Below are positions 144-51,498 of a stretch of 64,000 nt of DNA, piece by piece. Origin of the DNA: Escherichia phage AV116. The DNA lies in sequence record OR352946.1; one strand, 5' to 3'. Position numbers and translations under genes: made by a program. Every line of letters begins with the position of its first letter. Positions within the stretch are counted from its first letter, which is position 1. The notes beneath the pieces were generated by a model that had not been told where the DNA came from, made no database searches, and was given only the letters and a program-made list of their open reading frames with translations.

Positions 144-422
144 GTTTACCTCAATACAATTTATTATATACTCAATTCGTAAAGCTTATTTGAATTTCTT
201 GACAATGTTGATATAACGTAAAGCTTCAGCATCGATACTTCCAAGAACACTATGAAGAAATGCGTCAGCGTAGTATTCCAATTGAACAGGTTTCTTTAAT
301 CACTTTAGCCGCTTTAGTTTTAAACAGGCCCATCAGGGCCTTTTTAAGAATTTGTTCGTTAGTGTTCAGTTTAATAGTCAAAATCTCTTCGTTAAGTTTA
401 TAATTAAAAGTTTTTCTAGAAA

Positions 423-1592
423 TCATTCCGGGTACCTCAAAGCGTCATCAGAGTTAGTTATATCAATAATAGATATAGAGTTTTCTGCTAACCCGTTTTT
501 AGATAATTGACGTTTATAATATCTTTCACAATATGTACACGTCGTCCCGCAGATTTCATTAGCACAATCGAAATCTGGATGTCTGAACCACCTTTTTTCT
601 AAAAAGCCATCTAACAAAGAGGTTTCAATATTTACTGTATGTGAAAACTCAGTTTCGTTTTCAAGAGTGAAAATGGTCTCTAAAGGCTTCCACAGTTCTA
701 ACAAATTACCTTCAAACTTTTCAGAAGCGTATGCTTCAAGAACTTTCAAAATGTAGTCTGTGCTACCTGTACGTCCTGAAACTTTGAATTGAGTGATACC
801 AATATCATTATAAAGTTTCAAATCTTGAGGACGAACAAAACGAGTTCTCAACCAGTTAAATGGGTCTGTATCACGAGCTTTAATACAGTGCTGCATAGGA
901 TATCCGTTTAAGGATTTAGCATCATCAGCGGTAACATCAGTACTATGGAAAATATAGCAAGAGTCACGATAGCTACAATGTGTTGTATACCCTTTACCAG
1001 CATTAGAACAGAACTCATTTACAAGAACTTCAAATATTATATTGTTCTTATTGCAAAACTCTGCTGCACGCTTCAGGAAAGAAACTGAACGGTTCTTATG
1101 AATTCCGCAGCAGACCTTTTTGATATTATACTGGTCATGCAAGTATTTGATTTGAGTTACAGCATCGACATGTAGAATTGTTGAAACTTCAATCTCAATG
1201 TCTTTATTGACTTCACGAACAATTTCCATAACAACAGGGTTAGCGATAGTAATACGCCATACGCCTATTGACCAAAGATACTGAACATAATCCTGAATAG
1301 CTTTCTTCTTCCACTCAACTAGTTCTCTTTTTGAACCAGGATTTATCGTGTTGAGTGTATAGTTAAAGCAAATACCTAATTCGTTACAACGTTTAACGTA
1401 GTCTTCTAACATCTTTTTGTCAACGTCAGGAAGCCTAAAATCAGGTCTGGCTGCTACAAAAGCCATTTCTCTTGTAGAGCCATATACTTCGTTTATCAAG
1501 CTATTAGGATAGGTTTTATTGAGCTCTACGATTTTATCAAGAAGAGCTAAATCAAAATTCGTTCCGATTTTAAAAGTATTCATTTTTTGCAT
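423..1592 (-). CDS. cysteine-rich hypothetical protein, candidate Fe-S/TIM-barrel enzyme or DNA sugar transferase of the hypermodification cassette
   Basis: 389-aa ORF with C-terminal CANEICGTTCTYC cluster and further conserved-looking Cys (VCCG, FCSNAG, HCSYRDSC); weak resemblance to U32-type proteins; no T4 counterpart here. Confidence 0.75.
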   Translation of the reverse strand: MQKMNTFKIGTNFDLALLDKIVELNKTYPNSLINEVYGSTREMAFVAARPDFRLPDVDKKMLEDYVKRCNELGICFNYTLNTINPGSKRELVEWKKKAIQDYVQYLWSIGVWRITIANPVVMEIVREVNKDIEIEVSTILHVDAVTQIKYLHDQYNIKKVCCGIHKNRSVSFLKRAAEFCNKNNIIFEVLVNEFCSNAGKGYTTHCSYRDSCYIFHSTDVTADDAKSLNGYPMQHCIKARDTDPFNWLRTRFVRPQDLKLYNDIGITQFKVSGRTGSTDYILKVLEAYASEKFEGNLLELWKPLETIFTLENETEFSHTVNIETSLLDGFLEKRWFRHPDFDCANEICGTTCTYCERYYKRQLSKNGLAENSISIIDITNSDDALRYPE

Positions 1593-1638: not shown

Positions 1639-2040
1639 TTATAGATTCGGTTTATACGATTTAAATGTTTCGAATTCGCCTTTATTCATAAGAGCTTTGA
1701 ATTCGTCAGGACGCATAGCTTTGTCGTCGATAATCCAATCATATACTGGTTTATGTGTTAGCAAATTATGGTACTTCAAGCCAATGTTTGCCAAGTTCTG
1801 AATCAGACTTGGGAGAATGTCAATTGCTATACGTCCAGGACCTACTGACTTCATACCGCGAGCAGTGTAAAGCGTTATGGTATGCCCTGCATCATACAGG
1901 GCATTAATGGCAGACACCATTTCGACGTCTGGTTTGAAGTTCACGTAATCACGATTGTTATTCCACTCTGTTATACAATCATCGACATCAAAACAAAGAT
2001 TAAGCATGTTTTCTACACGGTGCATTAGATTCGTTCCCAT
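1639..2040 (-). CDS. HAD-superfamily phosphatase-like protein
   Basis: 133-aa ORF with N-terminal FDVDDCIT (DxDx[TV] HAD motif I); same operon as the isomerase and nucleotidyltransferase/kinase. Confidence 0.7.
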   Translation of the reverse strand: MGTNLMHRVENMLNLCFDVDDCITEWNNNRDYVNFKPDVEMVSAINALYDAGHTITLYTARGMKSVGPGRIAIDILPSLIQNLANIGLKYHNLLTHKPVYDWIIDDKAMRPDEFKALMNKGEFETFKSYKPNL

Positions 2041-3710
2041 TGATGAGTGATATCGCCACCGATTGGACGATAGGAAACACCAGTTTCTTTATCAGTTAGT
2101 ACCCATTTACCAGGATTTTTTGTAATCAGAGTAGCCGTTACAGGTTCTGCTACGTCATAACTAATAGAGCCGTCCTGAAGTACACGGCCCATGTTACGTA
2201 ATTGCTTAGTCAGAAGTTCCATACCTTTATAATATGCGGCTACCGCTTTAAGTGGATTATTCTTGAAATAACCACCTAATGCAATCCAGATAATTGCCAC
2301 AGCCAAATGATGATATTCATTAAACGAACTCAGCTTTCCATATTTGTAAACTAATGGATTGATGTTAATAGTCACATTACAAGTTGTTTCATCAATAGTA
2401 AACTGTCCCCAGGTCGGATTAGCATTGAATTCATCATAACCTGAAACAGCATAAAGCACTTTAGCTTCATCATACAATTTTGGCCCGTAAATCTTGGTTT
2501 CACCAAAATATCCACGAGGGTCGATAAATTTGACTTCGCCGTTATCAGTAATCATAGTATTACTGAAGTTCGGGTCACCATGAATAACAGAGTACTGTCC
2601 CTGAGAACGGTTATGATAACGAATAAGGTGTTCTAAAGCTTGTTTCAGCATTGGCTTCAGACGTCCAATCTTAGTGTAGTTCACATGTGTGATTTTACCA
2701 AATGAATCAATCAATGGTTGAATGCTTTCACAACGATCAATAACTTTCGTATAGAATTCTTTAGTGAAATCACGACGAACAGTTTCAGGACTTACAAAAT
2801 AAGTGTCTGTGCTGAATTTCAGTGCATCTAAAATTGCATCAACAATTTGTGGACGAGCAAGACTTGATTTGGATTTAATATATTCAAATGCCGGCTTACC
2901 TTTAATGCGTTCCATTTCAAAGTTATTTTCATTAACAGAAACTAACTGAGGAACTGAATCTGATTTCACTTTCAAATACCACGAAATCTCATCTTTCTGA
3001 AGAGCTCGACCTTGTTCAGTTAATGCGAATTTAGTTACAGTTTCTTCACCAATTTCAACTGCATTAAAACTACGATTAAGTTCACGAACTTCATGAGCCT
3101 TTTCAAGTTTAGGCATATCACCAAGGTCGATGATATTCATAAGCTCTGATTTATTGAATGCGCCGCTGTAAAGGAATTCTACGAAATCACGTCCTTTGCA
3201 GTATTCATGAATTTCCTCATCGGTAGAACCCATGTAGAATTCCCAGTCTTTGAACTGATAAATTCCTACAACATTACCACCTGTTGAACCTACGTTAGTG
3301 ATATTTTCACCGTCGAAATTATACCGACATTCATCACCCTTAACATAGATTGCGTTAACATTCCAAGACCATGAACCAAAATCAGGAATAATATCACACC
3401 AGTTAACAATTACATTATGGCCATCTAAATCTTTGTGTAATTTAGCAAGAGCATAAGCAGAACCATACGCTTCATCAACTGTACGAATAGTCACATTGAA
3501 CCCTTCTTGCTCACAATAAGCTCGAACAGTTTCAGCAAATTTTGAATGAACTACTACGATAATTTCATCTGCGCCAAGGTCAGAATAAATTGTATACAAA
3601 TTGCTCAGAATAGTGTCTTGTTTATAGTTAACAAGCACCTTAGGAATATGATGCGTTATTGGATACAAACGAGTTGCCAGTCCAGCACCAAGAATAACAG
3701 CTTTTTTCAT
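2025..3710 (-). CDS. bifunctional sugar-1-phosphate nucleotidyltransferase / APH-like sugar kinase
   Basis: 561 aa; N-terminal LGAGLATRL (GxGxxTRL nucleotidyltransferase signature); C-terminal HGDPNFSNTMI and IDPRG, typical of choline/aminoglycoside-type kinases. Confidence 0.8.
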   Translation of the reverse strand: MKKAVILGAGLATRLYPITHHIPKVLVNYKQDTILSNLYTIYSDLGADEIIVVVHSKFAETVRAYCEQEGFNVTIRTVDEAYGSAYALAKLHKDLDGHNVIVNWCDIIPDFGSWSWNVNAIYVKGDECRYNFDGENITNVGSTGGNVVGIYQFKDWEFYMGSTDEEIHEYCKGRDFVEFLYSGAFNKSELMNIIDLGDMPKLEKAHEVRELNRSFNAVEIGEETVTKFALTEQGRALQKDEISWYLKVKSDSVPQLVSVNENNFEMERIKGKPAFEYIKSKSSLARPQIVDAILDALKFSTDTYFVSPETVRRDFTKEFYTKVIDRCESIQPLIDSFGKITHVNYTKIGRLKPMLKQALEHLIRYHNRSQGQYSVIHGDPNFSNTMITDNGEVKFIDPRGYFGETKIYGPKLYDEAKVLYAVSGYDEFNANPTWGQFTIDETTCNVTININPLVYKYGKLSSFNEYHHLAVAIIWIALGGYFKNNPLKAVAAYYKGMELLTKQLRNMGRVLQDGSISYDVAEPVTATLITKNPGKWVLTDKETGVSYRPIGGDITHQWERI

Positions 3711-3751
3711 GTTGAAGTCCTCATTGGTAAGTAGGAGTATTGTACACTATT

Positions 3752-3895
3752 CTAGTTAAAGCATTCATACTTTGCTTGTAGTCCAATCATAATCCATCCA
3801 ATCACAAGTGTTGGAATCATTACCGGAGCCGTTAAGCTCCAGTAGATAGTCATGACAAGCATCAATAGTAAAAGTCCTATTGTTATTGCTTTCAT
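3752..3895 (-). CDS. small hydrophobic protein (47 aa, two predicted TM segments)
   Basis: Below ORF-track cutoff; ATG overlaps the stop of the upstream SIS gene (ATGA); MKAITIGLLLLMLVMTIYWSLTAPVMIPTLVIGWIMIGL. Confidence 0.35.
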   Translation of the reverse strand: MKAITIGLLLLMLVMTIYWSLTAPVMIPTLVIGWIMIGLQAKYECFN

Positions 3896-4567: not shown

Positions 4568-7279
4568 TCAAAAATCAAACATATCGAACAGAGATGCTTT
4601 CTTCTCGTAATCGAGTTTAGCTGCTGATGTGAATCCTTCAAGTGGTTTAATAAATGTCTTCTCAAGGAGAACAGTGTAGTCCATCCAATGAAGTACATCG
4701 TCTTTAATTAAATCTGTGATTTCAGTACCAGAAGGCCATGCGATACATTTATCACCGAATGGGTTTCCTTCACGTAAAGGCAGAACATATACTTTTTCAC
4801 CTTCTACAACTTGCGGTGCATCGATATTACCTTTGATAGCCCGGTTATACGTCAGAATTCCACGAATATGGAACGGGCATTTAGGACCAGGGAATCCACC
4901 GACATCATATTTAGCAATGTTATTCGCAGAAGATACCGACGCGATGCTAATATAATTCAATTGACGGAATTCTTTTTCAAACTCTTTAAAATATTCTTGT
5001 AATGATTCTTCACCTTCTTGAAGCATACGACGAATACATTCTTTAAGAGCTTTCTGTACTGCTTTAGGGGTCGAAGATTTCTGAGTCTCTAGACCCATGA
5101 TTTTGAGTTTAGGCTCAGCGTAACGAGTGCCTTCCATATCCCACACGTTTAATGCATAACGTTTCTTACCAGTCCAGAATCCACCAATACCTTTAGAACC
5201 GAGCGGAGGACCAGCGATAGCTTCTCGGTCCATGAACATTAAGTGTTGTTTATTGTTCATGTATTCACACATTTCACGGAAACCTCTATCAATAGCTGGT
5301 TCCATACGTTCACGTGCAAACTTATCTAAGAAGTCTACCCAATGGTTGGTATCACGGAATTTAGATTCACCAACCTTATCGATAATTTTATCAGCAGATA
5401 CGTAAATAGAGTCTGTATCACCATAAAGAACGAAAGCTTCACCTTCTGTACCACAAACTTCATTCAGATATTCATTAACTTTACGTTCAATCCACTGTAA
5501 AGCCATTTGCCCGAATGTTGTGATTGCAGTAGCATTACGCAAATCATAATAACGGAACCAAACGTTGCCAAGTGCACCATAAAGTGAGTTGATAAGCAAT
5601 TTACGGTTAATTTGTGCAGTCATACCTGCAACTTCAGTACGTTGAGCTCTAAACAACATTTCATTAAGAGATTTAGCAGACAACTTTTTAATCTTTTCTT
5701 TAATCTCATCACTGAAGTCGAAACGATAATCAACATCTAATGGTTCGTCAATAGAAAGATTAGGATTATGCAATGCCTCTTTAATTATTTCACCATTACG
5801 TTGAGCTGCAAGCATGTAACCTTTATGTTCTTTACGTTGATTAAAGACCTTAGTGATTTCAGTTGGAACTACACCATCACGGTCTTTATAATACATCATG
5901 CCGTTAGGAGAACAACTGTACACATCTGAAGGACGTTCAGCGATTGCGTTAATATAATCATGTAATGGAGCTACTTTAAACGTTCCTGCTATTGTTTCTG
6001 GGCTAATATTCACTTGGCGAATGATGCTTGGATACAGAGATGTAAGGTCGAAACTCATTACATATTTGTATCGATTTGGAATAGGTTCCTTAACAAAAGC
6101 GCCGGGATAAGGTTGAACCGGGTGAGAACGACCTTGTGGAATCACCTTGTTCTGCTCTTTAAGGCTATTAAAAATAATAGCATCCCATGTTTTAATTGGG
6201 CTAAACACAGATTGAATCTGTATCTTAGCATAATAACCCATGTCCAAGCTCAAGTTGATGAACTGACGCTTAGCATCAATTTGCAATACACGATACACGT
6301 CGATAATGTTATAAGAAATATATCGTTGGTGATTGCTTTCACGAAGCTTAGAAATAGGGCCGTCATATTTCAGTTTACCAACGTTCAATTCAAATTCTGA
6401 AATGTAATCCAGAGAATACGACGGTTGATTGGTAAAAGAGAATTTTTTGTAAAGGTCAATGTAATCAAGAACAGAGATACCGAACAATGTAATGATTTCA
6501 CGAGAACCATACATGTTTTCGATAACTTTAACACGAGTTTTACGATGTGGCGATAAACGTTTCGCAGTAGATTCGCCAAAAATATTCTTGATTCGGTTAT
6601 ACACATATGGAATATCAAATGACTCAACGTTCCATCCGGTTAAAATGACAGGAGTTTTCTGTTGCCAGAAATTGAGATATTCCATCAATAATTCTTTTTC
6701 GTTATCGAACGGCATATAAATGATTTTATCGATAATTTCAGATGGAACTTCATCACCACCTTGTTCTTGAAGCTTAGCAGCGATTTCAATAGACCATTCT
6801 TCTACATTACCATACGGAGAATTCAATAGATCAAATACGTAGAACCTGTCGTCAATTGAGTCATAATGGGTGATAGCATCAATAGGATGCTTTGCTTGTG
6901 CCGGCTCAGGGAACCCGTCCGGAGATGTTACTTCGATGTCGAAGTTAGCCACACGAATTTTTGTATGGTCGTATTTGATTTCATAGTTATAAGTGTCAGA
7001 CAAATACGCCAATTTGAAATCGTCCATGCCAAGTGCTTCAAGTCCGATATCTTCCATGCGTTTAATCCATTGGGAGGCATCACGCATATTAGCGAACAAC
7101 TTACGAGTACACGGCTTACCGTAGATATCGAAATATTTCGTAGCCTGACTTTCTGGACAATGAGCAAACAGTGATGGTTTATATTCTACTTCACGAGTAC
7201 GTTCACGGCCATTAGAATCGATGTAACGTTCAAAAATTGAATCACCAATCTGTTCAACCGTTAAGTAAAATTCTTTCAT
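4568..7279 (-). CDS. 43: DNA polymerase (family B) gp43
   Basis: 903 aa; recognisable T4 gp43 sequence with exonuclease and polymerase motifs (YGDTDS); flanked by regA-62-44-45 as in T4. Confidence 0.97.
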   Translation of the reverse strand: MKEFYLTVEQIGDSIFERYIDSNGRERTREVEYKPSLFAHCPESQATKYFDIYGKPCTRKLFANMRDASQWIKRMEDIGLEALGMDDFKLAYLSDTYNYEIKYDHTKIRVANFDIEVTSPDGFPEPAQAKHPIDAITHYDSIDDRFYVFDLLNSPYGNVEEWSIEIAAKLQEQGGDEVPSEIIDKIIYMPFDNEKELLMEYLNFWQQKTPVILTGWNVESFDIPYVYNRIKNIFGESTAKRLSPHRKTRVKVIENMYGSREIITLFGISVLDYIDLYKKFSFTNQPSYSLDYISEFELNVGKLKYDGPISKLRESNHQRYISYNIIDVYRVLQIDAKRQFINLSLDMGYYAKIQIQSVFSPIKTWDAIIFNSLKEQNKVIPQGRSHPVQPYPGAFVKEPIPNRYKYVMSFDLTSLYPSIIRQVNISPETIAGTFKVAPLHDYINAIAERPSDVYSCSPNGMMYYKDRDGVVPTEITKVFNQRKEHKGYMLAAQRNGEIIKEALHNPNLSIDEPLDVDYRFDFSDEIKEKIKKLSAKSLNEMLFRAQRTEVAGMTAQINRKLLINSLYGALGNVWFRYYDLRNATAITTFGQMALQWIERKVNEYLNEVCGTEGEAFVLYGDTDSIYVSADKIIDKVGESKFRDTNHWVDFLDKFARERMEPAIDRGFREMCEYMNNKQHLMFMDREAIAGPPLGSKGIGGFWTGKKRYALNVWDMEGTRYAEPKLKIMGLETQKSSTPKAVQKALKECIRRMLQEGEESLQEYFKEFEKEFRQLNYISIASVSSANNIAKYDVGGFPGPKCPFHIRGILTYNRAIKGNIDAPQVVEGEKVYVLPLREGNPFGDKCIAWPSGTEITDLIKDDVLHWMDYTVLLEKTFIKPLEGFTSAAKLDYEKKASLFDMFDF

Positions 7280-7337
7280 TTAATTTCCTTTAGACGAGTT
7301 ATTGTCTTTTGTTTGTTGATGAACTTATTATACTCCA

Positions 7338-7357
7338 AATGGGACCGAAGTCCCATT
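7338..7357 (-). promoter_or_regulatory. RNA hairpin (8-bp stem, UUCG loop) between regA and gene 43
   Basis: Perfect palindrome aatgggac-cgaa-gtcccatt in the regA-43 intergenic region, upstream of the gene 43 start. Confidence 0.4.
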
Positions 7358-7360
7358 GCT

Positions 7361-7729
7361 TTAATTACCAATTGTATATTTTGCTTTCAAAGTCCAGTCA
7401 TCTTTCTGTTTAAAAGAGATAACACGGAAGTTATTAGTCAGGCCAAACAGATCTTCACGAGCAGAGTCTTCAATAACAATCAAGCCCCAGTCTTCAAGCA
7501 ACTGAGCAATCGAATCACGTCGTTGGTAGTCTTCACCATCAATATCAACCTGACGTCCGTCCATACGCAGCATTTCTTTAAAGTGGACGATGTAGTATTT
7601 ACCTTGCTTTTGGAGGATATGACAAGACTGATAAAGAACTTTATCCTTGTTATTAGCGATGCCCATACGGGTCAGAGTCTCTTTGACTTTCAGAAAATCT
7701 TCGGGGTTCTTCAATTTAATTTCGATCAT
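7361..7729 (-). CDS. regA: RegA translational repressor
   Basis: Matches T4 RegA (MIEI.LK.PEDFLKVKETLTRMGIANNKDKVLYQSCHILQK...); ORF track starts 9 nt earlier (7738), start chosen by homology. Confidence 0.9.
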   Translation of the reverse strand: MIEIKLKNPEDFLKVKETLTRMGIANNKDKVLYQSCHILQKQGKYYIVHFKEMLRMDGRQVDIDGEDYQRRDSIAQLLEDWGLIVIEDSAREDLFGLTNNFRVISFKQKDDWTLKAKYTIGN

Positions 7730-7731
7730 TT

Positions 7732-8295
7732 TTACCATTCCAATGCTAATTTTTTAAATTGTTTTTGTTCTTTCACATTTTTTGTAACTTCTTTGAGAAA
7801 CTCATCAGTGACCATGGCCTTCAGTTCTTTAAGGACTATTGGCAACTTGTTATTTTTTTCAAGGAGCCGCTTATACTCGGTAGCATCATTCATGTTGATT
7901 GTGTAATGTTTCATCAACAGTTTGATAACTAGTAACTCTGAAGTGTCTTCAACTAGTTTAGCCCATTTAGAGAATCGACGACCACGCGGAATTGCAGCCA
8001 TCATATAGTTGAAGTGCGCTTCATCACTTAATTCAGAACCGACTAAGTTCATCATGTAAACAGCTGGCATACATTCCGGGAACTGGGATAATGAGTTCTC
8101 AACCATAAATTTTGAGTAGTCGACCTGAGCAATTGACGTAGATTTCTTTTCATTAATAGCATTAATGATTTTAAAGAATTCATTCTCAGGTTTTTCTTTA
8201 AACATGTCAGCACATTTTTGAATCGCATCAGCGTCGTTAGACTTCCATGCAATTTGGTGCTCGTTAAGTTGGACGTCATCATCAAATAAGTTCAT
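7732..8295 (-). CDS. 62: clamp loader small subunit gp62
   Basis: 187 aa; T4 gene order regA-62-44-45. Confidence 0.88.
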
Positions 8296-8296
8296 A

Positions 8297-9259
8297 TTAT
8301 TTCCAAGTCAGTTCGCAGGTCAGTTGAAGAAGCATATACATAACATGTAATTCAATATTACTTGCTAATCCATGAAACTTATTGTTTTCGCCTGCAATTT
8401 CATAAAGCGAAATAATACTTTTACCAGGTGCAACTTGGTCATAACATTCTGAAACTAATTTATCGATGAACCATGAATAATCTGCGGCATATTTTGGAGC
8501 TAATGCACGAAGTTGTTTGATATCTTTATTTTTCATTGCTTCTATGACATCATCTACCGTGCCACGGTCATTAGTTACGATAGACAAAATACCCGCATCA
8601 AGAACACCTTTAGACGAGTACTGGTCTAATTGACCAATTGTACGACGAAAGTCCGGGAAGTTCTTTTTAACCAGAGCTGCAACAACTTTCATATCAGCGA
8701 TTTCGATATTTTCGTTCTTACAGATTTCAACCATACGATGAATCATTTTCTTCATCATCGAGATTTTATCTTCTTCGGTTGGACGTCCGAATTCGATAAC
8801 TCGACAACGACTACGTAACGGTTCGATAATTCCATCGATGTTGTTAGCAGTAATAATAATAGAACAGTTACTAGAGAATTCTTCCATAAACGTACGAAGG
8901 TGACGTTGTGATTCGGCGAGGCCACTACGGTCAAATTCATCGATAACGATAACTTTCGGCTTGCCTTCCATTGAGACTGAACGAGCGAATGCAGTTAATG
9001 GACCACGCACAAAATCAATCTTACAATCAGAACCGTTGACGAACATCATTTCGGCATTAATATCATTACATAATGCTTTTGCTACGGTTGTTTTACCTGT
9101 ACCAGGAGAAGGAGAGTGTAAAATAATATGAGGAAGTTTTCCTTTAGATACTAAAGACTTGAATGTTTCATGGTCATACGCAGGCAGAATACATTCGTCA
9201 ATGGAAGAAGGACGATATTTCTGTTCTAGAATGTGTTCTTTGGAATTGATAGTAATCAT
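8297..9259 (-). CDS. 44: clamp loader ATPase gp44 (AAA+)
   Basis: 320 aa; Walker [11 protein letters not shown], Walker B VIVIDEFD; close match to T4 gp44. Confidence 0.95.
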
Positions 9260-9285
9260 GTAATTTTCCTCATTATCATTAAACT

Positions 9286-9301
9286 GGAGGATTTCTCCTC
9301 C
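9286..9301 (-). promoter_or_regulatory. RNA hairpin GGAGGA-GAAA-UCCUCC between genes 45 and 44
   Basis: 6-bp stem with GAAA tetraloop on the transcript, upstream of the gene 44 ribosome-binding site. Confidence 0.35.
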
Positions 9302-9334
9302 ATAATCGTATCACAATAAACGTAAAGCTTTGAC

Positions 9335-10021
9335 TTAGAAGTCGTGAGTAGAATCGGCTTCCATCGCAATAACATAACTTACTTGAGAGCTTTCAAACTT
9401 GGCTGCAACTTTATCACCAGCTCCCCACAACATTACTTTATAGTTACCTGGCTGGATTTTCATATTAGCCATATTGATTACGAAGTTAAAGTTGTTAGAA
9501 CCATCATAATCGGTAAGAGTCAAAGAATACTTAGGACGAGTTAGTCCTGAATCTTCAACTTTATTATAGCCATTGATAACAATTTTACCATCTTTATTTG
9601 TAATAGCAATTGTATCAATCTGAAGACCACGTGAAACTCGAAGCAATTGTTGAAGGTCTTCAGCTTTAATTTCAGTAATCACAGAAGCTACTGGGAATTG
9701 AATTGGCTTATTAGGAAAAACAATTGTGCTCTTGTCAGCGGCAGGCCAATAAACTGTGGAACGTGTATCTGCAATTTTAATATTGCCATCAGTGTGCATT
9801 GAAATTTCAGCATCATCAGACACTAGACTCAAAATGCTTAAGAAGCTATTCAAATCATAAAGTGCTACGTCAAAATCAATTTCATCAGAGATATTTGCTT
9901 CCGCATAAGTGGTGCCATTAACTGCACGAGTCATAATAAATTTACCTTGACTCAGCAGAATGCCAGAGTTAATAGAAGCGAAGTTTTTCAGAATATTTAC
10001 GGTTTCACGGCTAAGTTTCAT
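9335..10021 (-). CDS. 45: sliding clamp gp45
   Basis: 228 aa; position and sequence as T4 gp45. Confidence 0.9.
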   Translation of the reverse strand: MKLSRETVNILKNFASINSGILLSQGKFIMTRAVNGTTYAEANISDEIDFDVALYDLNSFLSILSLVSDDAEISMHTDGNIKIADTRSTVYWPAADKSTIVFPNKPIQFPVASVITEIKAEDLQQLLRVSRGLQIDTIAITNKDGKIVINGYNKVEDSGLTRPKYSLTLTDYDGSNNFNFVINMANMKIQPGNYKVMLWGAGDKVAAKFESSQVSYVIAMEADSTHDF

Positions 10022-10917
10022 TTAGGTTTCCTATTAGCATAATAATTTGTCCAAGTCCGGATAGCACCTTGGTATGATTCATCATTAAAACCATGCTGAA
10101 TTGCATGTTTTCTAAATGTAATATAACTTGGTTTTCCTAAAGCAATCCACAATTCCTTTAATTTTTGTTCATGAAATATCCATGTACCTCTAGCTTTAGA
10201 TTTTCTGAATTTATCCTTAAATTCTTTGGTTGCATTTCTTTTCGAAGCTGCGATAGAGGCCTTTGCTCTATTTTCAGGTTTAGACCAATACAATGTTTTA
10301 GATATTTTTATTTTATCTTTAACATTAGGAGAATTCATTATATCTTTAAATTTTAAAGCAAAATCTCTATCGTTAAACATTTTTTTAGAACGAATAGAAA
10401 CTTTCTCTCTTCGTTCTTTGGTCCAATATGTTTTTTGAAATTCTCTAATTGCGTTTAAATGATTCTCCGACAATTTGCAATTTTTTCTAACACCGACGTA
10501 ATCTTCGTTTATTTCGTTTTTAGAAAGTTTTACTATTTTGCCTGTTTTTAAATTTTTATACGGTGCATATCCTTTAGCTGATATTCTAGACTTCTCGTTA
10601 GCATAAGCCTTATTAAAATATTTTTCATTTGAAACGGCTTTAACATTGAGTTGGAATAGTCTTTCTATTCTTCTAGGGTCTAATGTGGTTTCGCCTAAAA
10701 TTTTTACAGAATATTCGCCTTGGTCTATTAATCTGTTATATAAAGGAGAATACGAGGAATTAACACTACCGGTATATATTTTACCGGTAGAATCTTCAAT
10801 AATATCCTTTCCATTAAAATGACACGAAACTTTAGAACCTATATAATAACACGGGTATTCATTTTTAATCTCACGATTATAAAAGGTTATAAGATATATT
10901 AAATTCATAATTATCAA
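10018..10917 (-). CDS. GIY-YIG family homing endonuclease (Seg-like), free-standing
   Basis: N-terminal IYLITFYN...YYIGSK (GIY-x12-YIG); lysine-rich C-terminal half; inserted between gene 45 and rpbA-like ORF. Confidence 0.7.
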   Translation of the reverse strand: MIIMNLIYLITFYNREIKNEYPCYYIGSKVSCHFNGKDIIEDSTGKIYTGSVNSSYSPLYNRLIDQGEYSVKILGETTLDPRRIERLFQLNVKAVSNEKYFNKAYANEKSRISAKGYAPYKNLKTGKIVKLSKNEINEDYVGVRKNCKLSENHLNAIREFQKTYWTKERREKVSIRSKKMFNDRDFALKFKDIMNSPNVKDKIKISKTLYWSKPENRAKASIAASKRNATKEFKDKFRKSKARGTWIFHEQKLKELWIALGKPSYITFRKHAIQHGFNDESYQGAIRTWTNYYANRKPK

Positions 10918-33454: not shown

Positions 33455-33945
33455 TTAGGTTCCCAATCAACAATCACAATTTCTAGTTTAGTGGAATACG
33501 TATCTAAAATCTCTTCGATGACATCCCAGTTTCCACCACCAATACCTGCACCAATTCTTGGCATATAAATTACAGGCTTTGTTATCTTATTCTTTCCGAA
33601 TTCATTTAATTCTATTATACAATTCATTAAAGCAGAGTACTCAAAATTAGGTCCCGGCTCAAACTGTGTATAAAGATTAAAGCAATAAGCTTTATGGGTC
33701 TTAAAATATTTTTCATAAACCGAATAAGTCCCGAGTTTAGACTTGTCTCCGAATTCGGTTTGAAGTTTATCGGCTTCCAGAATTTTTGGATAAGCCTTTG
33801 CTAATTGTCCTGCCACACCAGCGCCCATTGTATGAAAACAATTACACCCGTGAGCAATATTATTACCTTTAGAAAACAGGGCGACAATATCGCCCTTGAT
33901 ATAGTTTTTAATCACTTGCTGCAAGTCCTCTAGTATAAGAGTCAA
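33451..33945 (-). CDS. macro-domain-like protein (putative ADP-ribose binding/hydrolase)
   Basis: 164 aa; HGCNCFHTMGAGVAGQLAKAYP and IGAGIGGG resemble macro-domain glycine-rich loops. Confidence 0.45.
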   Translation of the reverse strand: MTLILEDLQQVIKNYIKGDIVALFSKGNNIAHGCNCFHTMGAGVAGQLAKAYPKILEADKLQTEFGDKSKLGTYSVYEKYFKTHKAYCFNLYTQFEPGPNFEYSALMNCIIELNEFGKNKITKPVIYMPRIGAGIGGGNWDVIEEILDTYSTKLEIVIVDWEPK

Positions 33946-50763: not shown

Positions 50764-51498
50764 TTACCTTAAGATTGTTTCAATTTTAGAATAAAGCTCT
50801 TCTAAAGAGCCGTCGTTTGTAATAACTAAATCGCCTTCTTCAATAGGCAACCCAGCTTCTGTAATATGTTTATCAGTGGATTCCGTACCAGAGCGAACCA
50901 CATGAATAACTGTAGCACCCATCGCTCTAGCGGTTTCCATTTCATGGACTTGACGTGTATCGGTTACAACATAGTAATCGAAATCACTTCCAATATAATC
51001 CATATAGTTTAATGCAAAAAGCTTAACCCAATACATACGGTCAAATAAATTAACGACAACATCCGTACCGAGGGCTTGCATAAGACGGCGGATTGACCAT
51101 GTGTCGTTGATATTATTTATAGCTTCACGCAGGGCTTCATATGGTTTAATATCTAGATACGAATATCCACCTTCTAACGATGATAATACTTTAACATTAT
51201 TAATTGGTAAATATTGACTTTGCAAATAAATTAGCGCTTCTTCCAATAATTCAATAACATCCAACTTATTGATATTTAATGGCGTTTCACGGTCATATCC
51301 GATACCTTCAAAGTATTCGTATTTCAACTCTGTGAATACATCAGGATTTTCAGCATGCCTACGTCCCCAGGCTATTGCTAGAGAGTCTTTAATTGGATAT
51401 GCTAATTGGTATTTTACGGATTTAAAGTTTGAATTGATGTAATCAGCAGTAGTGTCTTTACCACTACGTTTGATGCCACTTAAAAAGATTAGCTCCAT
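50764..51498 (-). CDS. 1: deoxynucleoside monophosphate kinase gp1
   Basis: 244 aa; P-loop LSGIKRSGKDTTADYI and extended similarity to T4 gp1. Confidence 0.93.
   Translation of the reverse strand: MELIFLSGIKRSGKDTTADYINSNFKSVKYQLAYPIKDSLAIAWGRRHAENPDVFTELKYEYFEGIGYDRETPLNINKLDVIELLEEALIYLQSQYLPINNVKVLSSLEGGYSYLDIKPYEALREAINNINDTWSIRRLMQALGTDVVVNLFDRMYWVKLFALNYMDYIGSDFDYYVVTDTRQVHEMETARAMGATVIHVVRSGTESTDKHITEAGLPIEEGDLVITNDGSLEELYSKIETILR

Follow-up and report, generated by a model that had tools for sequence, protein, structure and literature searches.

A nucleotidyltransferase-kinase fusion gene in Escherichia phage AV116

The DNA analysed here is a stretch of 64,000 nucleotides from Escherichia phage AV116 (sequence record OR352946.1), referred to in full as the window. 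The gene in question lies on the minus strand near the start of the window and encodes a protein of 561 amino acids (aa), in which an N-terminal nucleotidyltransferase domain is joined to a C-terminal kinase-like domain. Judged by its sequence, the 64-kb window is part of an RB69-like T4-type phage of the genus Mosigvirus. Its first 4.6 kb are represented in 152 phage records at 95-99% nucleotide identity, with Escherichia phage AV118 as the best match (99.2%). A sequence-only reading made from the letters and a list of open reading frames (ORFs) had described the gene as a fused enzyme; its coordinates were exact and the strand was not given. The fusion of a nucleotidyltransferase with an APH-like kinase in one polypeptide proved to be genuine, as the single ORF, the named motifs, the Pfam match of the N-terminal domain and the modelled fold agree. 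The protein ends with HQWERI, directly followed by TAA. The positions of the gene, its domains and the surrounding features are compiled in Table 1.

Table 1. Positions of the fused gene, its domains and motifs, and of other features in the window.
Feature	Coordinates	Strand	Basis and remarks
AfhE-type bifunctional gene	2025..3710	minus	single ATG-to-TAA ORF, 561 aa plus TAA; RB69 gp52:53 ortholog
N-terminal nucleotidyltransferase domain, residues ~1-205	3096..3710	minus	proposed arabinofuranose 1-phosphate uridylyltransferase; Pfam PF00483, LicC, Foldseek, invariant residues
C-terminal APH/choline-kinase-fold domain, residues ~206-561	2028..3095	minus	proposed C1-kinase of arabinose 5-phosphate
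GAGLATRL signature, residues 8-15	3666..3689	minus	motif position; aligns with the GLGTRL motif of LicC
HGDPNFSN catalytic loop, residues 377-384	2559..2582	minus	motif position, conservation
IDPRG metal-binding motif, residues 396-400	2511..2525	minus	D397, P398, R399 and G400 invariant
HAD-type phosphatase, AfhF / RB69 gp51 ortholog, 128 aa	1639..2025	minus	identity with PDB 9iqw
SIS-domain D-arabinose-5-phosphate isomerase, RB69 gp55 ortholog, 211 aa	3892..4527	minus	upstream of the fused gene
Very hydrophobic 47-aa ORF (MKAITIGLLLLMLVMTIYWSLTAPVMIPTLVIGWIMIGLQAKYECFN)	3752..3895	minus	between isomerase and fused gene; ATGA overlap of its start codon with the stop codon of the isomerase gene
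T4 middle-promoter-like site: MotA box TGCTTTA, 12 nt, TACAAT	3739..3763	minus	ends 28 nt upstream of the ATG of the fused gene; putative function
ThyA homolog (5-hydroxy-dCMP synthase, RB69 gp48), first ~47 codons	1..143	minus	cut by the window edge; aligned to RB69 and JK45
U32-family protein, RB69 gp50 ortholog	423..1592	minus	Pfam Peptidase_U32, 42.2 bits against a cut-off of 22.4 bits
gp1-type deoxynucleoside monophosphate kinase, RB69p159 equivalent	50764..51498	minus	T4 1dek, E 3e-91

Alignment with 46 homologs, which reach down to 29% identity, revealed invariant residues in both halves of the protein. In the N-terminal domain these are G10, R14, K24, D106, D195, D198 and K201, and in the kinase domain K227, E241, G378, D379, N384 and D397, with H377 kept in at least 90% of the homologs. 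Five further arginine or lysine residues of the kinase domain (R213, R326, R399, K417 and K488) are invariant in addition to the ATP lysine. Such invariance indicates that the signatures of the two fused domains are not due to chance. The tail of the kinase domain, from about residue 510 to 561, is confined to the versions from T4-like phages.

Domain assignment by sequence and structure

The N-terminal domain passes the threshold of the Pfam family NTP_transferase (PF00483) with 39.1 bits against a cut-off of 21.2 bits (E 8.4e-10, residues 3-99). By sequence it also matches LicC (1jyk, E 2e-5) across the signature KAxILxAGLxTRLxPxTxxxPKxLV. For the structural comparison, AlphaFold2 models built on 46-50 homologs were used, both of the full-length protein (pLDDT 93.8, pTM 0.90) and of the C-terminal domain (pLDDT 93.7, pTM 0.90). 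A Foldseek search with the full model placed the N-terminal domain next to RmlA, LicC, IPCT, GMPP, HddC (5xhw) and MurU, with E values of about 1e-8 over 220-260 aligned columns, and the C-terminal domain next to APH(2'')-IIa (3ham). No solved chain spanning both domains was found by Foldseek in the PDB, and a PDB sequence search for a solved AfhE, the name of the counterpart from phage HY126, returned matches to the N-terminal domain only. PfkB or CTP_transf_like domains, as found in HldE, were not matched by the fused protein in Pfam and profile scans.

According to the model, the C-terminal domain has the bilobal APH/choline-kinase-like (protein-kinase-like) fold, as a member of the fold superfamily only. 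At the level of Pfam families it misses the threshold of APH (PF01636) with 14.4 bits against a cut-off of 23.2 bits, and the matches of the C-terminal half to the fructosamine kinase, EcKL and RIO1 families are equally weak and below every curated threshold. A profile of this domain alone yielded nothing significant among PDB sequences; the best match (E 0.08) covered the catalytic loop only. The label APH-like, which the sequence-only reading had used, is thus appropriate for the fold and not for the Pfam family. The same reading had held that a kinase domain matching antibiotic or choline kinases and devoid of sugar activity would speak against its proposal. In the structure search the similarity to choline kinases, APHs and sugar kinases was about equal, and the comparison does not discriminate between them.

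Identity with RB69 gp52:53 and the published system

Once a single extra C in the RB69 record NC_004928 is removed, 555 of the 561 residues (98.9%) are identical to the joined RB69 products ORF053c and ORF052c, the six substitutions relative to the RB69 copy being H92Y, S182G, G183S, I193L, Q233H and L460M. The family phrog_4098 matches the fused protein from end to end (E 1.7e-294), and copies with at least 95% identity are present in 152 phage records. Architecture, motifs, identity and gene context place the fused gene in the AfhE / RB69 gp52:53 family. AfhE of HY126, RB69 gp52:53 (ORF53_52c) and DLP3 gp82 share the same 561-aa two-domain architecture and gene neighbourhood, and apart from the six substitutions we found no substantive difference, RB69 being the copy that was compared by sequence.

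This family has been described before. Thomas et al. 2018 (PMC6024577) corrected the extra C in RB69 by re-sequencing, recognised ORF53_52c as one product of 561 aa and proposed that it makes UDP-arabinose together with the SIS protein ORF055c. Lee et al. 2026 (PMC13326640) reported that RB69 DNA bears mono- and di-arabinosylated 5-hydroxycytosine and modelled gp52:53 as an N-terminal nucleotidyltransferase and a C-terminal kinase domain, the best structural matches being to 3ham, choline kinase and glucosamine kinase; these matches were reproduced in the present searches. In the passages of PMC13326640 that cite He et al. 2026 and Mahler et al. 2025, AfhE of HY126 phosphorylates D-arabinose 5-phosphate (Ara5P) and has the two activities of an Ara5P kinase and a UDP-arabinose pyrophosphorylase, and AfhF is a magnesium-dependent phosphatase that converts arabinofuranose-1,5-bisphosphate (Araf-1,5-P2) to arabinofuranose 1-phosphate (Araf-1-P). 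The fusion is real but already known, and the substrate, which the sequence-only reading had called unknown, is already published for the RB69 and HY126 counterparts (PMC6024577, and PMC13326640 as far as it reports on He et al.). A homolog with 54% identity, TH1_060 of the Shewanella phage Thanatos, is indispensable for growth of the phage, and with none of five NTPs tested did it turn xylose-1-phosphate into NDP-xylose (PMC12838424).

The neighbouring HAD protein leads to the same system. It is identical to chain A of PDB 9iqw in 128 of 128 residues, and RB69 gp48, the ThyA homolog, shares about 99% identity with PDB 9iqc, 9ir2 and 9iqu. We take these four entries to be the HY126 deposits of He et al., because the accessions are consecutive and a crystal structure of the ThyA homolog from HY126 was solved by He et al. 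according to the summary in Lee et al. 2026 (PMC13326640). On this basis, AV116 and the characterised phage probably differ very little at this locus.

A proposed route to UDP-arabinofuranose

Taken together, these data make it very likely that the ORF is the Mosigvirus ortholog of RB69 gp52:53 (HY126 AfhE), a bifunctional enzyme that makes UDP-D-arabinofuranose (UDP-Araf) for the arabinosylation of 5-hydroxycytosine. In the first step of the proposed route, the phage SIS isomerase would convert ribulose 5-phosphate of the host to Ara5P. The C-terminal kinase domain, with K227, E241, D379, N384 and D397, would then use ATP to phosphorylate the anomeric C1 hydroxyl group, giving Araf-1,5-P2, from which the translationally coupled HAD phosphatase would take off the 5-phosphate. 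The resulting Araf-1-P would react with UTP at the N-terminal nucleotidyltransferase (G10, R14, K24) to UDP-Araf and pyrophosphate, and in a fifth step GT-B arabinosyltransferases encoded outside the window would move the sugar to 5-hydroxycytosine. These separate GT-B enzymes accept UDP-Araf as donor in vitro. The activities in steps two to four, those of AfhE and AfhF from HY126, and step five are taken from the literature. Our own analysis contributes the domains, motifs and fold, the near-identity to RB69, the gene context, the match of the HAD protein to a solved structure and the four-activity fusions described below; that the AV116 copy should have the same activities as the RB69 type is suggested by the 98.9% identity.

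In the best-supported arrangement the two fused domains catalyse steps two and four of the four-step path to UDP-Araf and are not consecutive, because the separate HAD phosphatase AfhF must trim the bisphosphate before the N-terminal domain can act. The sequence-only reading had envisaged one protein channelling a free sugar via sugar-1-phosphate to an NDP-sugar. Its NDP-sugar product stands, and D-arabinose, which was among the sugars it named, is the sugar of the published pathway. The free sugar as kinase substrate would have to be replaced by Ara5P, and the channelling of consecutive steps within one protein would not hold, since a phosphatase on a separate chain intervenes in the published route; for both corrections the source is the account of the HY126 enzymes in PMC13326640.

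A connection between the activities is also evident from longer homologs of about 890-955 aa, which combine in one chain a HAD domain (residues ~1-190), a SIS domain (~260-390), a nucleotidyltransferase domain (~425-560) and an APH-like domain (~646-845). These four-domain chains serve as a 'Rosetta stone', and all four activities are therefore linked by fusion. The five invariant residues R213, R326, R399, K417 and K488 of the kinase domain would be compatible with a phosphorylated, anionic substrate.

Several points weigh against this assignment. The substrate of the kinase domain cannot be read from homology, with Pfam APH below threshold and the sequence relatives in the PDB insignificant, and the activity of the AV116 copy is deduced by sequence only. 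The order of the substrates depends on a secondary description, namely that of He et al. 2026 by Lee et al. 2026, and the attribution of 9iqw and 9iqc to HY126 is our deduction, in which the organism was taken from the accession series. Furthermore, Table 1 of PMC13326640 conflicts with the text of the same paper: there the HAD protein 'dephosphorylates Araf5P to Ara' and the kinase 'phosphorylates Ara to Araf1P'.

These are exactly the roles of an alternative order, the model of the sequence-only reading. In it, free D-arabinose is either released from Ara5P by the HAD protein or provided by the cell, the kinase makes arabinose 1-phosphate and the N-terminal domain forms the NDP-arabinose in consecutive steps. 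Maltokinase, 5-methylthioribose kinase and NahK, which are the characterised anomeric kinases in the set of fold neighbours, all use unphosphorylated sugars, which would suit this order, and the gene content fits either one. However, the text of PMC13326640 on the biochemistry of He et al. describes AfhE as an Ara5P kinase and lets AfhF act on Araf-1,5-P2, and the same paper likens the HAD neighbour to GmhB-type bisphosphate phosphatases. The invariant basic residues mentioned above may likewise fit an anionic substrate. We regard the free-sugar order as improbable.

A role of the fused protein as the DNA glycosyltransferase, its N-terminal domain being GT-A-like, is very hard to reconcile with the data. 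This idea goes back to an old match with a CDD superfamily named 'glycosyltransferase family A' (Thomas et al. 2018, PMC6024577), and the authors of the Thanatos study retain TH1_060 as a glycosyltransferase candidate (PMC12838424). On the other hand, the N-terminal domain has GxGxxTRL...K, the signature of pyrophosphorylases, and every one of its structural neighbours is a sugar-1-phosphate nucleotidyltransferase, TH1_060 moved no xylose from UDP-xylose to plasmid DNA, dCMP, dCTP or cytosine (PMC12838424), and DNA is arabinosylated in vitro by the separate GT-B enzymes. The glycosyltransferase reading was rejected on the basis of gene context and motifs. An activation of phospho-alcohols of the LicC/LicA type that is unrelated to DNA modification, for example from choline via phosphocholine to CDP-choline, has hardly any likelihood and was rejected on the same grounds.

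Comparison with known systems

In the heptose pathway of GmhA, HldE (or HddA and HddC) and GmhB, a SIS isomerase, an anomeric kinase that yields a bisphosphate, a HAD phosphatase and a nucleotidyltransferase lead to an NDP-heptose. In HldE of E. coli the kinase and the nucleotidyltransferase are fused and the phosphatase is separate. The phage route has the same four-step logic, and here as well kinase and nucleotidyltransferase are fused with the phosphatase apart; in addition, HddC is among the fold matches of the phage N-terminal domain (5xhw). In contrast, the kinase of HldE has a ribokinase fold and its transferase a cytidylyltransferase fold, the two are arranged in the reverse order, and neither is homologous to the domains of the phage protein. 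HldE may therefore be considered a functional analogue only of the phage enzyme. The sugars differ too, a heptose in the one pathway and a pentofuranose in the phage pathway.

AmgK and MurU, an anomeric kinase for N-acetylmuramic acid (MurNAc) and N-acetylglucosamine and a MurNAc-1-phosphate uridylyltransferase, are separate proteins that act consecutively on an unphosphorylated sugar, as is the case for NahK. The phage protein unites both domains in one chain; its kinase reportedly takes a sugar 5-phosphate, and the two reactions are separated by the action of a phosphatase. LicA and LicC, the choline kinase and the CTP:phosphocholine cytidylyltransferase, differ in substrate class and genomic context and come without isomerase and phosphatase partners. 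The 5-methylthioribose kinase MtnK is a stand-alone enzyme of methionine salvage and is 16-17% identical to the phage kinase over the aligned region; the 5-substituent of its substrate is a methylthio group, compared with the 5-phosphate reported for the phage kinase.

Distribution of the fusion

A tblastn search detected the fused protein in 373 phage records with identities from 100% to about 25%, and in 364 of them the match covered at least 80% of the length. The hosts of these phages include Escherichia, Acinetobacter, Klebsiella, Vibrio and Serratia. Using the kinase domain alone, an exhaustive HMMER search over 1.84 billion representatives returned 455 proteins at E <= 1e-10. A manual count of the best 150 of these gave about 88 proteins of two-domain size in which the kinase begins near residue 170-250, about 19 long multi-domain proteins, about 13 of stand-alone size (~300 aa), and fragments or intermediates as the rest. 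With about 88 two-domain forms among the best 150, fusion is the usual condition in this kinase clade, and the view of the sequence-only reading that it is uncommon has to be abandoned in the light of this norm and of the 373 phage records.

On a more speculative level, the kinase half could represent a distinct and so far unclassified APH/choline-kinase clade, lacking matches among Pfam families and PDB sequences, for the anomeric phosphorylation of a sugar phosphate and nearly always fused to a nucleotidyltransferase; giant viruses of eukaryotes could also make NDP-D-arabinofuranose or a related pentose nucleotide, and in the phages a complex of three activities could pass on the bisphosphate. 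We consider this combined proposal tentative and on balance doubtful. If true, the NDP-pentose of giant viruses would serve a so far undescribed glycan or nucleic-acid modification, and the three-activity complex would consist of a fixed domain arrangement, as in the confident model, and the translationally coupled phosphatase.

Among the four-domain HAD-SIS-nucleotidyltransferase-kinase homologs are P0084 (926 aa, contig L003 8001..10781) and P0108 (912 aa, contig L010 5545..8283). The neighbours on these two contigs are giant-virus-like and comprise MutS7-HNH, RNA polymerase Rpb2, RNA_pol_N, SNF2 helicase, Peptidase_C48 and asparagine synthase. Another four-domain homolog, P0091, stems from a eukaryote transcriptome. 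A metagenomic contig of 350 kb that resembles a jumbo phage (L006 5135..11689) contains a SIS gene, a GT2 gene, a nucleotidyltransferase-kinase gene (35% identical), an overlapping HAD gene, a ThyA homolog and a nuclease resembling T4 EndoIV; a dCMP deaminase is encoded close by, and the lineage of this version of the module is a distant one.

Gene neighbourhood and putative expression signals

The arabinosylation cluster lies on the minus strand directly downstream of gene 43, and the adjoining ORFs encode gp43 DNA polymerase, RegA, the clamp loader and the clamp. The glycosyltransferase genes are located just beyond the left edge of the window. Besides its identity with 9iqw, the HAD phosphatase matches 1xpj (E 5e-10) and the capsule biosynthesis phosphatase family TIGR01689 (E 4e-13). 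At the junction of the fused gene and the HAD gene, TAATG, the TAA of the former and the ATG of the latter share one base (A), an overlap that suggests translational coupling of the two genes. Overlapping or abutting pairs of a nucleotidyltransferase-kinase gene followed by a HAD gene were also found in JS98 (Dhakavirus), Acinetobacter phage Berthold, Serratia phage LC53 and the 350-kb jumbo-phage contig.

The SIS isomerase shows similarity to KpsF/GutQ (TIGR00393, E 9e-32), KdsD (E 4e-30), the PDB entries 3etn, 5uqi and 2xhz, and phrog_5670. The position of the 47-aa hydrophobic ORF behind it is kept in JK45 and LC53, with the annotation 'Transmembrane segment(s)' in LC53. The order of isomerase, nucleotidyltransferase-kinase, HAD phosphatase and ThyA homolog is conserved in Mosigvirus, Winklervirus, Acinetobacter phages and the 350-kb jumbo-phage contig. 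In JS98 (5062..10175) the nucleotidyltransferase-kinase, the HAD phosphatase, a kinase, the ThyA homolog and glycosyltransferase genes are retained. This cluster has no annotated SIS isomerase or U32 gene, in the place of which are an imm gene and a 166-aa ORF of unknown function; JS98 presumably relies on KdsD/GutQ of the host for Ara5P.

The pattern TGCTTYA-N11-13-TANNNT, to which the middle-promoter-like site in front of the fused gene corresponds, occurs 11 times in the window compared with 1.68 expected, a number reached in none of 100 shuffles. Nine of the 11 sites, which include 10120..10144, 10337..10360 and 33609..33634, are on the minus (early/middle) strand. A scan of the window with generic sigma-70 promoter and terminator models gave no enrichment.

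The gp1-type kinase lies far from the cluster. Its counterpart RB69p159 was co-expressed with the ThyA homolog to put 5-hydroxycytosine into DNA (Lee et al., PMC13326640).

The U32-family gene of the cluster

As a candidate gene for an O2-independent cytosine hydroxylase, the U32-family gene is a more novel lead than the fused enzyme. Lee et al. (PMC13326640) gave RB69 gp50, its ortholog, only the label 'sugar or heterocycle reductase'. Characterised U32 proteins are O2-independent, prephenate-dependent hydroxylases and include RlhA, which forms 5-hydroxycytidine (ho5C) in 23S rRNA (PMC5727448), TrhP, which forms 5-hydroxyuridine (ho5U) in tRNA (PMC6599085), and UbiU/UbiV (PMC10990095). Proteins at least 82% identical to the phage U32 protein are present in 221 records of phages of Enterobacterales and Shewanella; Acinetobacter phages do not appear in the organism tally of these records. 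In Serratia phage LC53 the U32 gene is followed by a chorismate mutase gene (6158..6502; CM_2, E 1.7e-11) and then by the ThyA homolog. Chorismate mutase is the enzyme that makes prephenate. Because of the hydroxylase relatives and the chorismate mutase neighbour in LC53, the U32 gene suggests, by analogy, an anaerobic (O2-independent) route to 5-hydroxycytosine that might back up the flavin/O2-dependent synthase.

Three findings limit the case for such a route: JS98-type E. coli phages are without the U32 gene, the RB69 protein in the position of the mutase has no homology to it, and the pairwise match to UbiU is insignificant (E 0.08), UbiU and UbiV being 20% identical to the phage protein in the alignment. 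As the pairwise similarity to UbiU/UbiV is weak, the family membership derives from the Pfam hidden Markov model alone. A strict link of the gene to facultatively anaerobic hosts was not confirmed and is partial only, since the JS98-type phages of E. coli lack it.

Next to the U32 gene, at about 187..426 on the minus strand, lies a homolog of RB69p049 / JK45 gp044 (79 aa) that is frameshifted by an extra A in a run of A residues, which leaves a 53-aa ORF (265..426) and an out-of-frame remainder. The gene may have decayed to a true pseudogene, or the extra A may be a sequencing error in the homopolymer run. The intact RB69p049 protein has no Pfam match. The idea that it is a chorismate mutase like its positional equivalent in LC53 was rejected for this reason and because of a BLASTP E value of 0.16.

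Annotation of the cluster in public records

The UDP-arabinose enzyme helps to supply the sugar donor for arabinosyl-5-hydroxycytosine, with which the phage shields the cytosines of its DNA from host nucleases. As already published, this hypermodification makes RB69-like phages, many of them candidates for phage therapy, resistant to restriction enzymes and shapes their sensitivity to type IV systems. The practical value of the present analysis is the correction of annotations. In most of about 150 near-identical GenBank records the fused gene is named 'hypothetical protein' or 'bifunctional protein GlmU', and several GenBank records name the HAD phosphatase 'phosphoheptose isomerase' or 'capsule biosynthesis protein'. 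The PHROGs family of the fused protein is listed as unknown function, and the RefSeq record of RB69 (NC_004928, 6095..7781) still splits the gene into ORF052c and ORF053c by the one extra C.

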